DNA of 32,000 nt from Promethearchaeota archaeon (GCA_016933055.1 JAFGBS010000008.1:120001-152000); one strand, 5' to 3'; positions 1,433 through 16,683 are shown, counted from the stretch's first letter. Notes: generated by a model from the letters alone, not told the origin. Translations and numbers: made by a program.

Positions 1433-2452
1433 ATGACTGAACAAAACCATCAAAATCGTATAGAACCATACCATAAATATTCATACCCTGAATATTTAAA
1501 GATCTTAATAGTGCTCGCTTTTTTGACGACAGCCGGCATATTTTTATTGATGTTTGGGTTAAATGAGGCATTCTTCATTCCCGAACCGGTTGCTGTATTC
1601 AAGATATTCAAAATTATCACATTCTTGGGTGATGAACTTTTTTTCATCATTGCTTTTAGCTTTATTTATTTTGCTTTTGACAAGCGGTACTCACGAAGGT
1701 TAATAATACCATTTTTACTCAGTACTCATCTCAATACCGTACTAAAAGTATTTTTTAAGGATCCTCGTCCTCCCGCAAATGAATATTTTGGTGAACCAAT
1801 TGGTACAGGATACGGACTTCCCAGCGGTCACACCCAGAGTTCTGTGGGCTTCTATGGCTTCACATTTCATCAGTTTAAAGGACACGAGAAAAAGAGTGGG
1901 ATAGTTGTCCGGATTATCAGTTTTCTTTTATTAATCTTGGTTCCCGTTTCTAGACTTATTATAGGTGCTCATGATGTCCAAGATGTTCTTTTCGGTTATT
2001 TGTTCGGGTATGCGGTGTTATTGATTTATTTCATGCTGGAACCTTGGTTATTATCCTTAAAACCGAAATTGCCTATGATTGTAAAAATACTGATTGGAGT
2101 TGTTGCAAGCTTAGGTTTATGGATTGGAAGTATTTTGCTTTTTCCCGAAGATGCATATGAATTCGGTTTGACTTGTGGAGCGTTATTGGCGTTTTCCATA
2201 TGTTTTCCATTGGAGGAAAAATATGTGCGATATGATCCTAGAAAAATGGCGACTTGGCAAAGAATAGTCTATGGGATAGTAGGATCGATAATAACGGTTG
2301 GATTATATTTTGGGTTAAGTTTGCTTTTCGATATGATCCCGTTTGCAGAATGGGACTATATTTTCAGATTGATTAAATATCTTCTACTCGGTGCAATTGT
2401 GGCAGTACTAGTTCCATATATTTTTACTTTGATTACCAAACAAAAAGAGTAA
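1433..2452 (+). CDS. PAP2-family integral membrane phosphatase with extra C-terminal TM helices
   Basis: All three PAP2 motifs: KVFFKDPRP (KX6RP), PSGH, SRLIIGAHDVQD (SRX5HX3D); strongly hydrophobic. Confidence 0.9.
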   Translation: MTEQNHQNRIEPYHKYSYPEYLKILIVLAFLTTAGIFLLMFGLNEAFFIPEPVAVFKIFKIITFLGDELFFIIAFSFIYFAFDKRYSRRLIIPFLLSTHLNTVLKVFFKDPRPPANEYFGEPIGTGYGLPSGHTQSSVGFYGFTFHQFKGHEKKSGIVVRIISFLLLILVPVSRLIIGAHDVQDVLFGYLFGYAVLLIYFMLEPWLLSLKPKLPMIVKILIGVVASLGLWIGSILLFPEDAYEFGLTCGALLAFSICFPLEEKYVRYDPRKMATWQRIVYGIVGSIITVGLYFGLSLLFDMIPFAEWDYIFRLIKYLLLGAIVAVLVPYIFTLITKQKE

Positions 2453-2815
2453 TTATTTTTCTTTCATTTTTTTTTGGAATCTTTTATTTGCCTGATCCAT
2501 AATCCTTTCAAATTCAAGATAGGTTTCCAGTAAATTTTTACCAGCTTCAGTCAGGATGGTTTTTCCACCTCCTCCTTTCCCACCCGCAGAAGCTTCCACA
2601 GGGCTTAATCCTCCAATATTTTGTTTAATCTTTTGAAGCATCCCCCACGCTTTCCGATAGGATATCTTTTTTGGAAGCAATTCGGTAGCTTTCACCAAAC
2701 TATGAGTTTCATCAATTGCTTTTAATAAATTTGCTCCCCCTTTCCCAATAACGTAATCCCCTTTTGAGTTAGATAACCATAACTTAAAACTAGGTTGGAG
2801 TGTGAGTTCGAACAT
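2453..2815 (-). CDS. modE: ModE-family winged-helix regulator (DNA-binding domain only, no TOBE/Mop domain)
   Basis: KLWL...VIGKGGANLLKAIDETHSL..A....ISYRKAWGMLQKI...VEASAGGKGGGGKTILTEAGKNLLETY matches the ModE N-terminal pattern; only 120 aa. Confidence 0.85.
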   Translation of the reverse strand: MFELTLQPSFKLWLSNSKGDYVIGKGGANLLKAIDETHSLVKATELLPKKISYRKAWGMLQKIKQNIGGLSPVEASAGGKGGGGKTILTEAGKNLLETYLEFERIMDQANKRFQKKMKEK

Positions 2816-2864
2816 AATCCTACCTTTTCATCTAAATGGGATTATATAAACTTTAAATAAGTAT

Positions 2865-2879
2865 AAGGAAATTTTTATA
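2865..2879 (+). promoter_or_regulatory. Putative BRE-TATA promoter of the ECF operon
   Basis: Purine run AAGGAAA (2865-2871) followed by TTTTTATA (2872-2879), about 50 nt before ATG 2929; AGGTG SD-like motif at 2916-2920. Confidence 0.55.
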
Positions 2880-2880
2880 C

Positions 2881-2908
2881 AACGTTATGCATTTCAATAC
2901 ATATCGAT
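2881..2908. promoter_or_regulatory. Putative ModE operator
   Basis: AACGTTATGCA-TTTCAA-TACATATCGAT: imperfect 11-bp inverted repeat (8/11) with 6-nt spacer; 16 of 20 defined positions match the ModE consensus as recalled (ATCGNTATATA-N6-TATATANCGAT); lies beside the modE-like gene. Confidence 0.65.
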
Positions 2909-2928
2909 AAACAAAAGGTGTTATTTAT

Positions 2929-3954
2929 ATGGCTAAATCAAAAAGTGGAATCATGATTGCCGTAGTTGTAGGCATTTTAGTAGTTGCTGCGGGTGTATTG
3001 GTTCCTTTATACTACTTTGTTTGGAGACCGCAGAGTCCCAATTATCCCACATGGGATTTGAAATTTTATGGAGATTCCGTTGATCAGAGTAAAAATATTA
3101 CCTACCAAGAAATTCAAGAGGAATTCAGCGCAACAGAATATTCATTTAATCATACCAGATGGTGGGATCCTGACGGTTATTTGTCCGAAATTAGGAATTA
3201 TACGGGAATTCCCCTATGGGACATTATTGAATATTCTGAAGTGGATTATGGTCATGCTAATGCATTACGTTTTGTAGCACTTGATGGGTTTAAGAGCCCT
3301 GCATTATCATTAGATGTAGTAGAAAATGACAAATCTCTTATTATAGTTTGTATAGCGGAAGAGGGTGTAATTTTGACGGGTCCTGAAGAAGATGGTGAAG
3401 GTTATTTAATGAGTGCAGTAAACTACTCGATTGATGAAACCAAAAAGAGTTCTCATTTTAATATGAAGAATTTGATTGGAGTAGAATTTTTGGTGGATTG
3501 GGATCTGACTCTTTTCGGAGAAACTTATGTCGAAACAAATATAACAATCTCATACAATGATTTCGTGAATTCAGCCGAATTGGATAGACACAACGTTTTA
3601 TTAAATTATACTAAACTGTGGGACAATGGGACTATTCGATCAAGTGAGTTAGTTAATGTGACCGGAGTTACGCTTTGGAGTATAATTCAGTATACGGAAG
3701 TAAATTACACAACTGCCTCAGGGGTTAAATTCATTGCGAATGATGAATGGTCTACTTGGACTGTCTCCTTAGATTGGGTTGAAGAAAATGCATCTAAAGT
3801 GTTGATTGTTTATGAAGAAAATGGGCAACTTTTAGACCACGAATCAGATGGATACCTGTACTCCATGGTAGATTATAGTTTAACAGAAGGAACATCAAGC
3901 AGCCAATTCAAAGCAAAATTTTTAATGGGAATAGAATTTACATTATTTTTGTGA
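2929..3954 (+). CDS. Membrane-anchored extracytoplasmic protein with two tandem sulfite-oxidase-family molybdopterin-binding-like domains
   Basis: N-terminal basic plus hydrophobic anchor. Internal duplication: WDL..G, TG..LW.II.Y.EV.Y..A...F.A.D, SLD.VE, G.L.S.V.YS, SS.F..K.L.G.EF occur in both halves. Ten N-X-S/T sequons. Confidence 0.7.
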   Translation: MAKSKSGIMIAVVVGILVVAAGVLVPLYYFVWRPQSPNYPTWDLKFYGDSVDQSKNITYQEIQEEFSATEYSFNHTRWWDPDGYLSEIRNYTGIPLWDIIEYSEVDYGHANALRFVALDGFKSPALSLDVVENDKSLIIVCIAEEGVILTGPEEDGEGYLMSAVNYSIDETKKSSHFNMKNLIGVEFLVDWDLTLFGETYVETNITISYNDFVNSAELDRHNVLLNYTKLWDNGTIRSSELVNVTGVTLWSIIQYTEVNYTTASGVKFIANDEWSTWTVSLDWVEENASKVLIVYEENGQLLDHESDGYLYSMVDYSLTEGTSSSQFKAKFLMGIEFTLFL

Positions 3955-3987
3955 TTCATTATTAGAAAAAACTACTGGAGAATATGA

Positions 3988-4539
3988 ATGGAAAGACATA
4001 GAACAAGAAGAATCGCATTTATTACCCTTTTTTTTCTTTTAATTATGGCTTTTCCCATACCTCTAATTGTTTTTAACCTAAGAAACCGGAATCCGGAATT
4101 ATATTCGATACGGATTGAGGGAAATGTATCTGAAGTCTTAACTTACACTTATGAGGATATTGTTGATGGATTATTTGGAGTGGTTGAAAAACAAGAATTT
4201 GTGTATTTAAATCAACCCCCGTACAATACGAGATATAACGTCATCTATACTGGTGTCAGTGTATGGTCTTTATTAACTCATAAATCGGTAATTAACTCCA
4301 ATGCTACTGAAATCTTTTTTCGTTCTTATGATGCGTATTACACTGACACATTACTTCTCGAAAAAGTTGAAAATAATCCCACTCTCGTGATAATAGCCTT
4401 TAAGAAAGACAATAAACCTTTAAAATATAATAGTGATGATGGTGGACCCCTGCGTGCAATCGTGAACTTAAGTGTAACAGAACCGGATTATTGCAGTAAA
4501 TATTGGGCTAAATATGTAAATACCATCGTTGTAGTTTGA
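3988..4539 (+). CDS. Membrane-anchored protein with one sulfite-oxidase-family molybdopterin-binding-like domain
   Basis: N-terminal TM helix, then YTGVSVWSLL, FRSYDAYY, IIAFKKDNKPL...GGPLRAIV, WAKYVNTIVV, following the Oxidored_molyb pattern. Confidence 0.75.
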   Translation: MERHRTRRIAFITLFFLLIMAFPIPLIVFNLRNRNPELYSIRIEGNVSEVLTYTYEDIVDGLFGVVEKQEFVYLNQPPYNTRYNVIYTGVSVWSLLTHKSVINSNATEIFFRSYDAYYTDTLLLEKVENNPTLVIIAFKKDNKPLKYNSDDGGPLRAIVNLSVTEPDYCSKYWAKYVNTIVVV

Positions 4540-4560
4540 TAATTCAACTGATTGATTACT

Positions 4561-5205
4561 ATGACAAGAAGAAGCCAAGATGAATTAGTAGATGAGGGAA
4601 TTACAGTTCCTGAGGGTTATATGGATACTCGAGAATATATCAAGAAAAATACGATATTGGGATTATTAACAGTTCGAGATCTGCTATATGCATCTGTTTT
4701 GGGCATTATGGGTGGTTTTATTTCATCATTGGTGCCTTTCAGTTTAATCATCAAAGCAATATATCCATTTTGGGGGGGTTCTCAACTAATGTCTGGCCAT
4801 CATATGATATGGATGAGTATCGCATATGGAACTACCAAGAAGAAATCGAGTTTACTTATCACTGCTTTATTAAAAGGAGTTATTGAATTCCTTTTAGGCG
4901 ATCGTTTGGGAGCTTTCATCATACTCATGAATATTTTTGAAGGGTTGTCTCTTATGGTGGGTTTTATCATTATTGAGCAATTAGGTGAGTATAAAACCAA
5001 CTTTGGCTGGTCTATTGCGGGAGGAATAGGGAATGTTACGCAAGCACCGATTTTCTGGTGGATTGCTGGTCGCTTTGGTATCTTACATTGGTCGTTAGCT
5101 GCTATTGCTTTTACTTTTGCTTTTTTGTCAGGATGTTTTATTACGGGTTTCCTAGGACGTCAAATCACAATTTCGATTAAGCGATCAATGGGAGAGATAC
5201 CATGA
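4561..5205 (+). CDS. ECF transporter S component (YkoE/ABC_cobalt-like)
   Basis: About six TM helices; RDLLYASVLGIMGG and GVIEFLLG patterns; ATGA overlap with the ECF ATPase. ORF track starts at TTG 4552; ATG 4561 preferred. Confidence 0.75.
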   Translation: MTRRSQDELVDEGITVPEGYMDTREYIKKNTILGLLTVRDLLYASVLGIMGGFISSLVPFSLIIKAIYPFWGGSQLMSGHHMIWMSIAYGTTKKKSSLLITALLKGVIEFLLGDRLGAFIILMNIFEGLSLMVGFIIIEQLGEYKTNFGWSIAGGIGNVTQAPIFWWIAGRFGILHWSLAAIAFTFAFLSGCFITGFLGRQITISIKRSMGEIP

Positions 5206-6725
5206 CGAGTATTGTGGAGTTCATTGAATTTTCCTTTCGATATCCTCATACAGAGCAAGATATTATACAAAACGCTTCTTTCAAAATTGAAAAGGGAACT
5301 TTAACTCTATTATATGGACTATCGGGTTCGGGAAAAAGTACTCTTTGTTACGCAATGACCGGGCTTATCCCATGGTCGGTTCGGGGATTTATTAAAGGCG
5401 ATGTAAAAATTCTTGGTAAAAATACCAAAGAAACAAAACCCAACCAATTTGCTGGGGATATCGGATATTTAATGCAGAATCCTGATAGCCAATTTGCCAC
5501 CTTAAATGTGCGTGATGAACTAATTTTTGCTGCAGAGAACATTCAAATTGATAAATTAGAAATCGAAAAGAGATTTCAAAGAATTGTCGAATTACTTGAT
5601 TTACGTACATATTTGGACCGTAATGTCACACAATTAAGTAGTGGGGAAAAACAACGAGTAGTTTTAGGCTCTATTCTTATGATGGAACCTGCTCTTCTTA
5701 TATTAGATGAACCCCTTTCCTTTTTAGACTATCCTAATCGTTTAAAATTATTGGGATTTTTACGAAAAGTACTTTCAAAATATAGTGATCTCTCTGTCAT
5801 AATTGCGGAACATCGGATTAATGATATTATCCCATTAGCTACCAATTTTTTAGAAATTAAAGATGGTTTGATCACACCTGTTCCTTTTCCAGAAGTAAAA
5901 TCTCAAAAATTTATTCCTAATTCATCCATAGCATTTTCCTATAAAGATTTAATTCATCATTATGGATTTCAAGAAGACAGCTCGGATTATCCCGAGCAAC
6001 AAATACCTGATATTAGTTTCAAGCAAGTGTCCTTTAATTATACACAATATTATGGGAAATTTACTCAAAATAGCGTCACTATTTTACATAAGATTTCATT
6101 TAAAGCCTTTCCTGGAGAAATTATAGCCATAATTGGTCCAAACGGAATCGGAAAAACTACTTTATTATATCTGATTGCGGGTATTTTACAAACCTCCGAT
6201 GGGGAAATATTTTTCAAAGGGCAAGATATTGCCAAATTACATTATGGTAAATATTCTAGAAATATCGGACTAATTTTTCAAAATCCCGAGTCCCAACTCT
6301 TAAAGAATACCATAAAAAAGGAGATTGAATTTGGTCCAAAAAACTTCGGAATTAGGATTGAAGAAGATCAAATTCAACGATATTTAGAGTTTATTTTTTC
6401 CACATCACAAGCTAATTTTAAAGCTCTATTTGAACTCCATCCCTTTAATTTATCCTGGGGTGAAAAACGCCGTTTAAATCTTGCATCTTTATTTGCATAC
6501 TCTCCCTCAATTTATCTATTTGATGAACCCTATACTGGCCAAGACTATATTGTGAGAACCAAATTACTCAAAATCATTAAATCTATCTCTGAAAACTCAG
6601 GTTTAACTATAATTTCGAGCCATGATGAGGAAATCTTGCAATCGTGTAGTAGAGTTTTCTTATTAGATGAATCGGGTTTCACAAATTTTAAGAAAAATCA
6701 AAAGCTTGGAAGTGAGCAACCATAA
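5202..6725 (+). CDS. ECF transporter ATPase with two fused ABC cassettes (A-A')
   Basis: Walker A GLSGSGKS and GPNGIGKT; Q-loops MQNPDSQ and FQNPESQ; signatures LSSGEKQR and LSWGEKRR; Walker B LILDEP and YLFDEP; H-loops AEHR and SSHD. Confidence 0.93.
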   Translation: MTSIVEFIEFSFRYPHTEQDIIQNASFKIEKGTLTLLYGLSGSGKSTLCYAMTGLIPWSVRGFIKGDVKILGKNTKETKPNQFAGDIGYLMQNPDSQFATLNVRDELIFAAENIQIDKLEIEKRFQRIVELLDLRTYLDRNVTQLSSGEKQRVVLGSILMMEPALLILDEPLSFLDYPNRLKLLGFLRKVLSKYSDLSVIIAEHRINDIIPLATNFLEIKDGLITPVPFPEVKSQKFIPNSSIAFSYKDLIHHYGFQEDSSDYPEQQIPDISFKQVSFNYTQYYGKFTQNSVTILHKISFKAFPGEIIAIIGPNGIGKTTLLYLIAGILQTSDGEIFFKGQDIAKLHYGKYSRNIGLIFQNPESQLLKNTIKKEIEFGPKNFGIRIEEDQIQRYLEFIFSTSQANFKALFELHPFNLSWGEKRRLNLASLFAYSPSIYLFDEPYTGQDYIVRTKLLKIIKSISENSGLTIISSHDEEILQSCSRVFLLDESGFTNFKKNQKLGSEQP

Positions 6726-7603
6726 AGAATCGTAAGGAACAGCAAATTGTAGATTATGTATTTAATTTTAAACCGGGAACATCATTGTTTCATAAACTTC
6801 ATCCTGTTCCCAAAATAGTTTTTATCGTGCTATTGACCTATATTGTACTTGTTCAAACGAGTTTATTGGTATTAGCAGGATTGATGATCTTCGTTTTTGG
6901 TCTTTCTCTTAGTGTTGGAATCACCATACCAGCGTTGTTCTCCCGCTTGAAATGGATTTTAATGATCATAATTTTTACTGTAGTGATCAATATTTTCTTT
7001 AATGCGATAGAAGGAGAACCAGAAATTCTATTTTATTTAATCCCCAGAGAACCTATCGAAGATTCGTTATTGCCAATTCGCCGTTTAGCCGTATACTACG
7101 CATTTCGTATTGCATTCTGGATTTTAATACTTAGTAATTGTGGATTGATTTTTTTACATACTACATCTCCTAAAGATGTGGTGTATGGATTACGTTGCTT
7201 GGGTGCACCATATAAGTTCGCCTATGCGCTTATGATTGGAATGCGTTATATTCCTCTTATTCAAGATAGTACTACGTCTGTGGTGATAGCACAAAAAGCA
7301 CGTGGATTAGAAGGAAGCAATGCTAGAGGACTTAAACGAGTATGGGAATTGGTCCGAGATCGGTTGACAACTTCCCTCATCCTAATATTTAAACAAATAA
7401 AAATCACTGCAAAATCGCTTGAACTTAGAGGTTTTGGTAAATATAGGGGACGTACCGATTTGTATAAAATTCCTTGGCAATTTAGAGATTTTTTATTTTT
7501 ATCAATATTTCTTGCATTTATACTATTTGCTTCATTATATCGTTTCAGTGTATTGTGGTTTATACCCCCCCTTCCTTCGATTTACTCGATGTTCTGGGTA
7601 TGA
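6722..7603 (+). CDS. ecfT: ECF transporter T component
   Basis: FKPGTSLFHKLHP N-terminal motif, GMRYIPLI, coupling Arg motifs AQKARG and SLELRG. Frame is open from 6716; ORF track uses TTG 6785, start proposed at ATA 6722 (uncertain). Confidence 0.88.
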   Translation: MKNRKEQQIVDYVFNFKPGTSLFHKLHPVPKIVFIVLLTYIVLVQTSLLVLAGLMIFVFGLSLSVGITIPALFSRLKWILMIIIFTVVINIFFNAIEGEPEILFYLIPREPIEDSLLPIRRLAVYYAFRIAFWILILSNCGLIFLHTTSPKDVVYGLRCLGAPYKFAYALMIGMRYIPLIQDSTTSVVIAQKARGLEGSNARGLKRVWELVRDRLTTSLILIFKQIKITAKSLELRGFGKYRGRTDLYKIPWQFRDFLFLSIFLAFILFASLYRFSVLWFIPPLPSIYSMFWV

Positions 7604-11312: not shown

Positions 11313-11840
11313 ATGGCAGAAGAAGAAAAAGAAATTAAAATGAAGATCTGTCTTCTAGGAGATGGAGGAGTGGGTAAAACATCCCTAGTGTATCGTTTCA
11401 TTCAGAATAGATTCTCGACGGATTTCAAATCTACTTTAGGGGTGAATTTGCTAAAACATGAAGTTGCAATAGACCACATTAGAGTGACTGTACAAATCTG
11501 GGACCTTGGAGGACAAGATAAATATGAGGGATTACGTAAATTATATTTAGATGGATCTCAAGGAGCTTTGTTAGTTTTCGATAAAACAAATAAAAAATCT
11601 TATGAAAATCTGGAAAAATGGGTAAGATCCTTTAGAGATTTACGAGGAGGTAAACCCATGCTTCTTATTGGAAACAAATTGGATCTAAAAGAATTTATTG
11701 TAATTGATGATGAGACTGCAGAATCTTATTCAAAATCCCATGATTTAGATTACATATCCACCAGTGCAAAAACAGGAGAAAAGGTGGAGACTGCTTTCAC
11801 ATCTCTGATAAAAAAAATAATAGAAAATAATCCTCCTTAA
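11313..11840 (+). CDS. Ras-superfamily (Rab-like) small GTPase
   Basis: G1 GDGGVGKT, G2 Thr in KSTLG, G3 WDLGGQ, G4 NKLD, G5 SAK; no C-terminal Cys. Confidence 0.93.
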   Translation: MAEEEKEIKMKICLLGDGGVGKTSLVYRFIQNRFSTDFKSTLGVNLLKHEVAIDHIRVTVQIWDLGGQDKYEGLRKLYLDGSQGALLVFDKTNKKSYENLEKWVRSFRDLRGGKPMLLIGNKLDLKEFIVIDDETAESYSKSHDLDYISTSAKTGEKVETAFTSLIKKIIENNPP

Positions 11841-13275: not shown

Positions 13276-13899
13276 TTAAAGGAAGGTGAATTCTTCATCG
13301 AATCCATCGGATTCAAAATCACCTTCTTCTTTCGTGACACCTTGTTCACGAACTTCAACAGATAGCTTTTTAACAGCTTCTGCCACAATTTCCTTGGTTT
13401 TACCGCCGGTACATACAATACGGCCAGTAGAGAAAATCAGAAAGACCGTTTTAGGATCTTGCATTCGATAAATCAAACCGGGAAAAACCTCAGGTTCATA
13501 CATGGCAAACTCCATGACTACCGCTGCTAGATTAAGATCTATGCTTGTGTGGAGGTCACCAGATGCCACAATATTTTGAATGGTAATAATTGGATTGGAT
13601 ACTTCAATCTTCGCTTTCTTTATACGACGAATGACTTTTTGTACGACACCCTCAGCCTCATCAGCCCGTCGCATACCTGTTACAACCATCTTTCCCGTGC
13701 TGAATACTAATATTGTTGCTTTTGGTTTATCTATTCGCATTACCAGACCGGGAAATCGTTCTGGATTGTACTCCACGTCTGCATAACGACGTGCGATGAC
13801 ATTAAGATCAATCTTTTCTACGATATCTAATGTTACGGTAGCGACAACATTCTCAATTTTATAAGTTGCTTCGGGGATCTCTTCATTTTCTTCAGACAT
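13276..13899 (-). CDS. tbp: TATA-box-binding protein
   Basis: Two TBP repeats: IENVVAT...YNPERFPGLVMR...LVFSTGKMVVTG and IQNIVASG...YEPEVFPGLIYR...LIFSTGRIVCTG; GAGGAG SD-like motif. Confidence 0.98.
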   Translation of the reverse strand: MSEENEEIPEATYKIENVVATVTLDIVEKIDLNVIARRYADVEYNPERFPGLVMRIDKPKATILVFSTGKMVVTGMRRADEAEGVVQKVIRRIKKAKIEVSNPIITIQNIVASGDLHTSIDLNLAAVVMEFAMYEPEVFPGLIYRMQDPKTVFLIFSTGRIVCTGGKTKEIVAEAVKKLSVEVREQGVTKEEGDFESDGFDEEFTFL

Positions 13900-15012: not shown

Positions 15013-16683
15013 TTATTTGTTAAATGGCCAGATTTGGGGATAGAGACCATAAGGACCTGTTAGAAGATCTCCATTGGGATAATGTGCACTTATGGTACAC
15101 GTATTTCCATTATTCGATATTGTAAGTTTCATATAATGTAATGTCTGCTCTCCATACTGATATCCATAAAGTTCATTATCTGTAGAATAGGATTGTGTTT
15201 CTGGCAAATGGTAATACAATTCATGATGTTTGGATTCTGCATAGATCTTATGAGCATCTGAATTCACATACAGACTGGAATTCCACGGATTCCGAGTGAA
15301 AGAATAATTCTGGTATTCCCCCGCACTTATATTGTAGAATGTGCGTTGAACGTTCCAAGGATCATGAGTTAATATTCCGTAATCGACCTCCAAATGAGCA
15401 CCTCCTCCACCTGAGCACCAATAATGAGTCTCATTACCAGATGGGATATCAGTTTTATTGTATAATAAACCACTTGAACCATATGTGTAATTCCAGTGTT
15501 CATAATGGTGATCATGACCGAAAAATATCCCATCTACATCATATTTATCAGCTAATGGCACTAACCAAGTTTGTAAATCCCAATTATGACCCGATGTTCC
15601 TGTGGTTAAAATAGTGTGATGGAAATTCACAAAAATCCACTTCTGTCCGCGAGATTTTGCTTCGATAATATCCTGTTCCACCCATATTTTCTGAGCAGAA
15701 GTCATTTTATAATTTCCTGCATCAAAATTGTCGATTATTACAAAATGACAATTAGCGTAATCAAAAGAATAATATAATCCATCGGAAGAAGCATATGGAT
15801 AGGGAAACAGCATTCTAGTATTGACATCCCCCCCGCCACTATAATCATGATTTCCCACCGCAACTTGGAACGGTGCATTTGCAGCATAAAGAGGGAAGTT
15901 TTTCATGGTAAAATGCCATATCAGTGCCATCTCTCCACTAGAACTTAAGTCTCCTAATTGAATCACGAAATCTGGATTTTCTTTGGCAATTCCTTCCGCA
16001 ACCAGAGCCCCCGATCTTATGGTATCTAACCATGTTGGTTGCATATCGCCCACAATTATCATTTCAAAATCTCTATTATCATTTGGTGCCGTTGTGAAGG
16101 AGAAGAGATCAGTTTCATGCTTGGAATAAAAATTTCTATTGATTTTGTAATAATATTTTGTGTTAGGTGTAAGATTTGATAGATAGAAGTGATGCAGGTG
16201 GCTACGAGGTGCATTCGACCTAATTTTCTCTAAGCTTTCTGGAGATGTGCCGAATAAAATTTCAGTTGGGGTTATTGTGCAGGTCAACCATGATATTACC
16301 ATTTCAGTTTGGGGATCTTCTCCGAATGTAATATATGGACCATCATTCCATAGATAAATTTGATCTACATGAAAATAACCCCCAAATGATACTAAACTAT
16401 ATTCAGCGATTGGAAAGGCAATCATTAACATCAAACCAGCTGCAAGGATGATTTTTCTGGAGATATTTGATCTCGCAGAAAGACTAAGAATTACTTTAAA
16501 ACCTAAAAATGTAAATAATCCTCCCAAACCAAGGCATACAACTGAAAACAGTGTTACACATAAGGGATACACCTTTCTGATACTGGTCAATAAACTAAAA
16601 TAAACAAAGCTCCCGAAAAAAACCAGAGAAATGAGAAAGGAAAATCCGATTACAATCTTATTCCGAATCTGTTGATCAATCAT
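15013..16683 (-). CDS. Membrane-anchored purple-acid-phosphatase-like metallophosphoesterase
   Basis: Three N-terminal TM helices; FN3-like PAP N-domain (ISW, HHFYLSNLTPNTKYYY); motifs GDMQ, GDLSS, GNHD, VNFHH, GHDH. Confidence 0.85.
   Translation of the reverse strand: MIDQQIRNKIVIGFSFLISLVFFGSFVYFSLLTSIRKVYPLCVTLFSVVCLGLGGLFTFLGFKVILSLSARSNISRKIILAAGLMLMIAFPIAEYSLVSFGGYFHVDQIYLWNDGPYITFGEDPQTEMVISWLTCTITPTEILFGTSPESLEKIRSNAPRSHLHHFYLSNLTPNTKYYYKINRNFYSKHETDLFSFTTAPNDNRDFEMIIVGDMQPTWLDTIRSGALVAEGIAKENPDFVIQLGDLSSSGEMALIWHFTMKNFPLYAANAPFQVAVGNHDYSGGGDVNTRMLFPYPYASSDGLYYSFDYANCHFVIIDNFDAGNYKMTSAQKIWVEQDIIEAKSRGQKWIFVNFHHTILTTGTSGHNWDLQTWLVPLADKYDVDGIFFGHDHHYEHWNYTYGSSGLLYNKTDIPSGNETHYWCSGGGGAHLEVDYGILTHDPWNVQRTFYNISAGEYQNYSFTRNPWNSSLYVNSDAHKIYAESKHHELYYHLPETQSYSTDNELYGYQYGEQTLHYMKLTISNNGNTCTISAHYPNGDLLTGPYGLYPQIWPFNK

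Follow-up and report, generated by a model that had tools for sequence, protein, structure and literature searches.

We analyzed a window of 32,000 nucleotides (G000:C15:120001-152000) from a 3.76-Mb, 91%-complete metagenome-assembled genome (MAG) of a Promethearchaeota archaeon (Asgard, Loki-type), where a five-gene operon with a divergent regulator gene probably encodes a dedicated group I energy-coupling factor (ECF) importer for the molybdenum/tungsten (Mo/W) pterin cofactor. The candidate substrate is Mo- or W-molybdopterin, or possibly metal-free molybdopterin, and the source archaeon most likely takes the cofactor ready-made from neighboring microbes. The core of this proposal, that surface proteins sharing the fold that binds the molybdenum cofactor (Moco) feed an ECF importer salvaging the Mo/W-pterin cofactor, was put forward in a first-pass annotation of the same DNA and is now supported by genome comparison and structure prediction. 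Below, L-numbers denote related loci, G-numbers genomes and f-numbers families in the Asgard genome set. The cluster comprises the following features:

2453-2815, minus strand: regulator that has just the N-terminal domain of ModE, a winged helix-turn-helix, 120 amino acids (aa); best match TIGR00637
2872-2879, plus strand: TATA-like box TTTTTATA, read from the sequence and assigned to the operon promoter by its position ~50 nt before the ATG at 2929
2883-2906, palindromic: putative ModE-type operator of 24 bp, CGWTWT-N12-ATAWCG, shortly after the TTTTTATA box; recurs in L002 and L004
2929-3954, plus strand: membrane-anchored surface protein with two Cys-less sulfite oxidase (SUOX)-fold (Oxidored_molyb-like) domains, 341 aa; PF00174 and A1 profile
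3988-4539, plus strand: membrane-anchored surface protein with one Cys-less SUOX-fold domain, 183 aa; PF00174, AlphaFold2 (AF2) and Foldseek
4561-5205, plus strand: ECF S component of the PF09819 (YkoE-like) family; 38.1 bits
5202-6725, plus strand: fused A-A' ATPase with two ATP-binding cassette (ABC) domains, 507 aa; PF00005 twice
6716-7603, plus strand: ECF T component of the CbiQ family; PF02361, 74 bits

Cofactor-dependent enzymes in genomes lacking the recognized Moco pathway

The source genome encodes nine aldehyde ferredoxin oxidoreductase (AOR; AFOR_N) genes and four PF00384 molybdopterin-oxidoreductase genes, and profile searches of this 91%-complete assembly revealed no MoaC, MoeA_N, MoaE or Mob_synth_C (the C-terminal domain of MoaA). 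A tblastn search with the moa proteins of a relative recovered no MoaA, MoaC, MoaE or MoeA from the genome either, and only a MoaB orthologue. Three closed genomes that carry the module, those of Promethearchaeum syntrophicum MK-D1, Candidatus (Ca.) Lokiarchaeum ossiferum B35 and Ca. Harpocratesius repetitus, contain 7, 7 and 6 AOR genes, respectively, and no MoaC, MoeA_N or MoaE, which removes incompleteness as a caveat. Because steps on both sides of molybdopterin are lacking, such cells would have no use for an oxyanion or for a precursor of the cyclic pyranopterin monophosphate type, and the imported species should be metal-carrying molybdopterin, or molybdopterin into which the metal is inserted by another route.

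Distribution of the importer and the pathway

We searched each of 301 Asgard genomes with six queries, one of which was a profile (A1) built from the alignment of homologues of the 183-aa surface protein. Genomes with a match numbered:

A1 profile (SUOX-like): 74 of 301
MoaC: 124 of 301
MoeA_N: 130 of 301
AFOR_N: 295 of 301
PF09819: 125 of 301
ThiC: 105 of 301

Within this sample MoaC and MoeA_N co-occurred, and the transporter was distributed nearly as their complement, as seen in individual families:

Own order (f1 + f2): both 5, transporter only 35, pathway only 29, neither 7
f9 (Thorarchaeota): both 1, transporter only 45, pathway only 26, neither 4
f14: both 0, transporter only 17, pathway only 2, neither 0
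f24: both 0, transporter only 16, pathway only 2, neither 3
f29: transporter 11 of 11, pathway 0 of 11

When genomes were pooled, 126 of 132 transporter genomes were found to be without MoaC and MoeA_N, and at least 11 genera contained both transporter-type and pathway-type genomes. Fisher tests gave values of 1.7e-9 for the own order and 4e-15 for f9, whose significance is overstated because relatives are not independent. The co-occurrence of the cluster with Mo/W enzymes and with loss of moaA, moaC, moaE and moeA, which the first-pass annotation had proposed as a check, holds in Asgard genomes. We excluded from the transporter count some weak A1 matches in prototrophs, ~360 aa long, because they represent a true SUOX enzyme (132 bits) with a fused DUF4079 that is encoded beside tupABC and moa genes; this enzyme of prototrophic relatives was not found in the source genome.

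Two genomes that hold both systems (G279 and G183) have the module immediately before moaC-moaA-moaE-moeA-moaB-moeA and in the same orientation, and in G049, a prototroph without the module, the position before moaC is occupied by tupABC and a genuine SUOX enzyme. This substitution could be taken to mean that the module is an ECF-type tungstate or molybdate importer that replaces TupABC/WtpABC and whose SUOX-like domains bind the oxyanion, an explanation that would also fit the ModE-type regulator and operator and the fact that TupA was not found in the source genome. We nevertheless regard it as very unlikely, as an oxyanion is of no use without molybdopterin synthesis and MoeA, and the genomes without MoaC and MoeA_N (126 of the 132 with the module) include the three closed ones. 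Moreover, we know of no SUOX fold that binds an oxyanion, and metal-specific ECF S components (CbiM/NikM) come from a different family. The window itself contains no gene for a ModA-, WtpA- or TupA-like protein, in agreement with the first-pass annotation.

The ECF core and the question of its substrate

The last three genes of the operon have the layout of a group I ECF transporter, with an S component, two ABC domains and a CbiQ-type T component encoded on one strand and separated by overlaps or short gaps. The S component exceeded the PF09819 cut-off of 25.2 bits, with only a marginal match to Bacillus subtilis YkoE (5edl; phmmer E 0.18, 15 bits). For the A-A' ATPase, the best NCBIfam matches were ECF_ATPase_1 and ECF_ATPase_2 (281 and 284 bits), both below their equivalog cut-offs.

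Gene calls and domain searches recovered all six genes at the coordinates originally assigned to them, and on sequence grounds the five operon genes are co-transcribed. The spacing first described (gaps of 33 and 21 nt and a 4-nt overlap between the S and A genes) is correct if the S gene starts at ATG 4561, for which TTG 4552 is a possible alternative, but the second 4-nt overlap then reported would require a non-canonical ATA start at 6722. The reading frame of the T gene is open from 6716 and its first canonical start is TTG 6785. Because the peptide encoded before 6785 (...DYVFNFKPGTS) is kept in relatives, translation should begin upstream of this codon, likely at a non-canonical codon (ATA 6722 or ATT 6746). 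Conservation of the region 6716-6785 ahead of the canonical start implies an ATA or ATT start or else a sequencing error; in L004 the T gene call is similarly too short.

Membership of PF09819 raises the alternative that the importer carries another pterin or vitamin, such as thiamine/hydroxymethylpyrimidine (HMP), folate, a neopterin-type compound or a methanopterin fragment, with the SUOX-like domains acting as PruR-like binders of small pterins. The family includes YkoE, named an HMP/thiamine permease (5edl), and homologues are named likewise by the Joint Genome Institute (JGI). PruR binds monapterin and neopterin and has a truncated Moco pocket (PMC11194511), and Asgard archaea with restricted vitamin synthesis have been described (PMC7015854). 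We consider this alternative unlikely, in part on the evidence of ThiC as a control. ThiC was present in the source genome and in 66 of 69 f2 genomes, and absent from all f9, f14, f24 and f29 genomes, in each case whether or not the module was there. The module instead tracks the loss of MoaC and MoeA and abuts moa genes where both occur, the S component here resembles YkoE only at E 0.18, and the regulator and operator are of ModE type, with the operator common to an AOR gene. Binding of thiamine precursors by the S component, an outcome listed in advance as speaking against cofactor import, is therefore not supported, given that ThiC is present here and non-complementary and that the likeness to YkoE is remote.

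Surface proteins built on a sulfite oxidase fold

We next considered the first two operon products, described initially as surface-anchored proteins with molybdopterin-binding-like domains; they prove to combine a transmembrane (TM) anchor with, between them, three Cys-less SUOX domains. In the 341-aa protein, a TM segment at the N-terminus is followed by two PF00174-like domains (29.6 bits over residues 190-305), and both halves of the protein matched the A1 profile (E 1e-17 and 8e-17). The 183-aa protein consists of a TM helix and one PF00174 domain (47.9 bits), and its AF2 model (predicted local distance difference test (pLDDT) score of 83) contains a helix at residues 2-32 followed by a SUOX fold. 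Foldseek matched this model to sulfite dehydrogenase (2ca3, E 6e-8), YedY and sulfite oxidase, with the closest small solved relatives being structures of PruR (7kp2, 7kom, 7kos, 7kou and 7rkb; E 1e-6 to 7e-4, TM-scores by target of 0.63-0.71). Comparison of the A1 profile with PDB sequences reached E of about 1 at best, at the C-terminal motif of SorA.

Each surface protein holds one Cys, and none is invariant among 16 aligned homologues of the 183-aa protein, where its single Cys (C169) varies to N or S. The same alignment retains the C-terminal fold signature GGPLR...YW.K..N and shows N75, Y87 and W93 to be invariant. Domain searches of the two proteins revealed no dimerization, heme or MsrQ-like partner domain, and N-x-S/T sequons occur 10 times in the 341-aa and three times in the 183-aa protein. 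Together, sequences and models indicate that the surface proteins are non-enzymatic, outward-facing copies of a cofactor-binding fold.

Complex prediction for the S component and the 183-aa protein gave a score of 0.65, compared with 0.00 for the best of three controls. In calibration, scores at this level were obtained for 58 of 80 solved complexes and for 2 of 110 mismatched pairs, a comparison that is rough because our own alignments were used. The runs agreed in at least 82% of contacts, with a partner pLDDT of at least 86, and the predicted interface packs residues 12-33, the TM helix of the 183-aa protein, onto the final helix of the S component (176-192), mimicking the arrangement of a natural S-SUOX fusion. 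This model supports the predicted docking of the 183-aa protein on the S component through its TM helix.

Conservation and natural fusions

The order SUOX-like gene, S, A-A' and T recurred in every related locus long enough to show order, and sequence comparison identifies the cluster as a conserved module, far beyond chance. Searches located the S gene at 57 loci. Almost all of these bear Asgard labels, and they include the closed MK-D1, B35 and Ca. H. repetitus genomes. Two loci carry other labels: L048 (DATKTP010000133.1), labelled Deferrimicrobium (a bacterium), and L059 (WJJB01000042.1), labelled Bathyarchaeota, have Asgard-like S genes that are 57% and 53% identical, respectively, and each is either misbinned or genuinely non-Asgard.

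Families f9 (which NCBI names Thorarchaeota), f14 and f24 have an S protein of 350-390 aa that comprises the S core, an extra TM helix and a C-terminal extracytoplasmic SUOX domain, and precomputed Pfam annotations list many S homologues that carry PF00174 plus PF09819. An AF2 model of a fused S protein (pLDDT 84) matched both YkoE (5edl; TM-score by target 0.78, r.m.s.d. 2.2) and SUOX, YedY and PruR structures. Alignment of the Thorarchaeota C-terminal extension to A1 by hhalign reached only E 0.01, though over the full domain length, and the fold was settled by Pfam and AF2 instead. Surface domains are conserved beside ECF genes, and in Thorarchaeota even fused to the S component; a lack of such conservation was part of another outcome that the first-pass annotation had named as counting against its proposal.

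The gene upstream of the S-SUOX fusion encodes a TM segment with Metallophos and SUOX-like domains in Thorarchaeota, and a TM segment with two SUOX-like domains in f14 and f24. Two of these membrane-anchored metallophosphoesterase-SUOX fusions (L041:7409-8671 and L036:6838-8112, both Thorarchaeota) overlap the start of the S-SUOX fusion gene. By analogy, the Metallophos-SUOX protein may act at the cell surface to cut dinucleotide forms of the cofactor down.

With 187 representatives out of 1.84 billion at E ≤ 1e-3, the SUOX-like family is a small one. Three distant members were checked, and two of them are encoded immediately upstream of PF09819, ABC and CbiQ genes; multi-repeat SUOX-like versions occur beside ECF parts on two bacterial-type contigs (L105 and L106). 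NTPase_1 (PF03266) and DUF364 (PF04016) genes also recur beside clusters in distant organisms (L004:4293-4826, L106:7829-8326 and another Loki contig; L046:8803-9645 and L106:11194-11934).

The relatives of the SUOX-like proteins include very large SLH or dockerin surface proteins with many repeats, and an FMN_bind domain occurs in one neighbor, as might be expected if these were redox- or adhesion-type surface proteins merely sharing an operon with an ECF importer of an unrelated substrate. Such a coincidence seems very unlikely, given that S and SUOX domains are fused in hundreds of proteins, that the order of SUOX-like gene and then S gene is invariant with a docking interface predicted, and that Mo-ligand Cys, dimerization and heme domains are all missing.

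A ModE-type regulator and its putative operator

The regulator matched TIGR00637 (the ModE N-terminal repressor domain) best among families, with E 1.4e-16 and 60.3 bits, short of the curated cut-off of 98.5. Homologues of 46-49% identity are divergent from the same operon in L002, L004 and L048. The regulator gene was seen only in close relatives, and was not within 3 kb upstream of the module in MK-D1, B35 or FW102. No Mop/TOBE domain was detected in the 120-aa protein, nor was one (PF03459) found anywhere in the source genome. The original ModE assignment holds for a probable DNA-binding domain and for the operator. As E. coli-type molybdate sensing is unavailable without a Mop/TOBE domain, the suggestion that the operon is repressed when Mo/W is sufficient is not supported as written. 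A ModE without a Mop domain has been noted to bind DNA independently of Mo (PMC12327845).

Between the divergent genes, where a ModE-box-like operator had been noted, lies the 24-bp palindrome, the core of which (GTTATGC-N8-ACATATC) fits RTTATGT-N8-RCATAAY at 12 of 14 positions. The latter is the ModE motif of Methanosarcina, validated by electrophoretic mobility shift assay (PMC12327845). L002 and L004, in which the regulator gene is likewise divergent, carry the palindrome at the same place before their orthologous operons. A degenerate operator pattern gave eight sites in the genome compared with 1-5 in each of five shuffles, and a genome scan with a half-site matrix revealed only two strong sites, this operator and C11:65975. 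The matrix was built from sites that included both, and the C11 site was first found by a loose pattern that does not require the extended half-site match. This second box (C11:65975-65998; L008:1350-1373) is located 118 bp upstream of an AOR gene (C11:66093-67946). After the AOR gene comes a 153-aa open reading frame that is 34% identical over 118 aa to the MoaA N-terminus and, by its sequence, may be a cmo-like gene for cofactor modification; a Rieske/VanA_C gene is divergent from the AOR gene. Rfam searches of the window and of six related loci revealed neither a riboswitch nor any other RNA family; L105 and L106 are cut at their 5' ends.

A possible route for the cofactor and points against it

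In the mechanism that we propose, the two N-terminally anchored proteins would display three Cys-free cofactor-binding folds of sulfite oxidase type outside the cell, where they would bind cofactor released by neighboring cells. In Thorarchaeota, analogy with the salvage of other vitamins suggests that dinucleotide forms may first be shortened by the fused metallophosphoesterase. The surface domains would then hand the cofactor to the S component, with the 183-aa protein docking through its TM helix, and the ECF module would import it with ATP for insertion into AOR-type and other enzymes. The ModE-type protein, on an operator just downstream of the TATA box, may co-regulate the operon and one AOR gene.

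Several observations weigh against import of the finished cofactor. Free cofactor is labile and has been reported as never found free in organisms (PMC13653126), and PruR, the structural precedent, binds small pterins in a pocket too short for Moco (PMC11194511). JGI annotation treats the S family as thiamin/HMP permeases, and the regulator lacks an oxyanion-binding domain and is confined to close relatives. Most of the genomes compared are MAGs, and related genomes are not independent samples. Six genomes hold transporter and pathway together, and seven own-order genomes, two of them at least 92% complete, have neither. In f7, 26 of 28 genomes have AOR but neither the pathway nor a recognized PF09819 or A1 gene. 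The source genome itself keeps a MoaB orthologue (C22:72222-72752; L016) that is 48% identical to the MoaB of a prototroph moa operon, and an ABC system with SBP_bac_11 and WtpB/ModB/CysT-like components (C10:9854-13702; L013), neither of which is required or explained by import of a finished cofactor.

Two further observations concern these genomes. MoaB was not found in five other auxotrophs when searched with a single protein query, a search in which no positive control gave a signal. In the f7 genome G157, a gene encoding a TM segment and two SUOX-like domains (L042:1276-2292) overlaps the start of an exporter-type ABC membrane-domain gene (2282-3343), and to judge from its sequence this pair may be a different translocator for the same job.

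We lean, with somewhat less confidence than for the importer itself, towards a broader reading in which the Mo/W cofactor is a 'vitamin' traded among anaerobes. A recognized pathway is missing from over half of the Asgard genomes in the sample and from the two cultured Lokiarchaeia that were checked; about 44% would import the cofactor by ECF systems with recycled cofactor-binding folds, in Thorarchaeota with trimming by a surface phosphoesterase, and the exchange would form part of the syntrophic tie. If the module imports the cofactor, this would explain how Asgard archaea such as MK-D1 and Ca. L. ossiferum can function without a cofactor pathway while having 6 to 10 or more genes for tungsten enzymes, and it would add a concrete nutritional dependency to the syntrophy thought to underlie models of eukaryogenesis. 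It may also aid cultivation, for example with cofactor-rich extracts. At the molecular level, the module would represent a new route to ECF specificity, in which capture domains derived from an enzyme cofactor pocket are separate or fused to the S component, and it would correct the annotation of hundreds of proteins now called thiamin/HMP permeases or molybdopterin-dependent oxidoreductases.

Neighboring genes

Upstream of the cluster, a PAP2 gene (1433-2452, plus strand) encodes a multi-TM phosphatase, and its stop codon abuts that of the regulator gene with zero spacer. This gene and a His_Phos_1 gene (694-1371) were dropped as possible parts of the system, as neither is conserved beside the cluster in L002 or L004. 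Further along the window are genes for a Ras-family small GTPase (11313-11840, plus strand; 162 bits), a type of gene typical of Asgard content, and for TBP (13276-13899, minus strand). A purple-acid-phosphatase-like protein of 556 aa (Pur_ac_phosph_N + Metallophos) is encoded at 15013-16683 on the minus strand, 7.4 kb from the cluster. Similar genes are located 2.3 kb downstream of the cluster in L002 and divergently adjacent to it in another Loki contig, and a dockerin-bearing version occurs in the bacterial-type cluster L106.

Comparison with known systems

We know of no Moco transporter in any organism, and in the literature we found no description of a prokaryotic Moco importer or of Moco auxotrophy in Asgard archaea. 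The parts of the module nevertheless resemble several characterized systems. Closest in its ECF core is YkoEDC, the group I ECF thiamine/HMP transporter of B. subtilis, whose operon likewise combines a PF09819 S component of the same fold with a CbiQ-type T component and an A-A' ATPase fusion. In contrast to YkoEDC, the S component here belongs to the same Pfam family but is not a YkoE orthologue (E 0.18), the window has no Rfam match to a thiamine pyrophosphate riboswitch, and there is no complementarity with ThiC. In addition, the S component is always accompanied by, or fused to, extracytoplasmic SUOX-fold domains, which to our knowledge are not known for YkoEDC.

Among proteins with a similar fold, PruR of Agrobacterium, Vibrio and Klebsiella is likewise small, exported and Cys-less, without catalytic partner domains, and binds pterins at a site equivalent to the Moco site (PMC11194511). 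PruR signals to a cyclic di-GMP enzyme of the DcpA type (GGDEF-EAL), whereas the neighbors here are ECF genes. It binds small pterins in a truncated pocket, in which Tyr/Trp and Asn residues sandwich the pterin and a P-W motif takes the former Cys position; the domains described here are instead tied to the membrane by an anchor or by fusion to S, and track the loss of Moco biosynthesis. The SUOX molybdoenzymes (sulfite oxidase, sulfite dehydrogenase and YedY/MsrP) share the fold and the C-terminal GGPLR...YW.K..N signature, but the proteins described here are without the conserved Mo-ligand Cys and without a dimerization, heme or MsrQ-like partner.

Like the ModE regulons of E. coli (modABC) and Methanosarcina acetivorans (anf/vnf; PMC12327845), the module has a palindromic operator, which fits the ModE motif at 12 of 14 positions, and a regulator with a probable N-terminal DNA-binding domain of ModE type. 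It differs in having no Mop/TOBE domain and in its apparent targets: in place of an oxyanion ABC transporter, these are an importer of cofactor type and an AOR gene.

Finally, the proposed route has parallels in the salvage of other cofactors. In Haemophilus, a NadN-type pyrophosphatase acting on nicotinamide adenine dinucleotide precedes nicotinamide riboside uptake, thus combining extracellular trimming with uptake, and Caenorhabditis elegans acquires dietary Moco. The likeness lies in a surface phosphoesterase coupled to an importer and in the acquisition from others of a cofactor supposed to be non-exchangeable; the difference is that in Thorarchaeota the phosphoesterase is fused to a putative ligand-binding fold.

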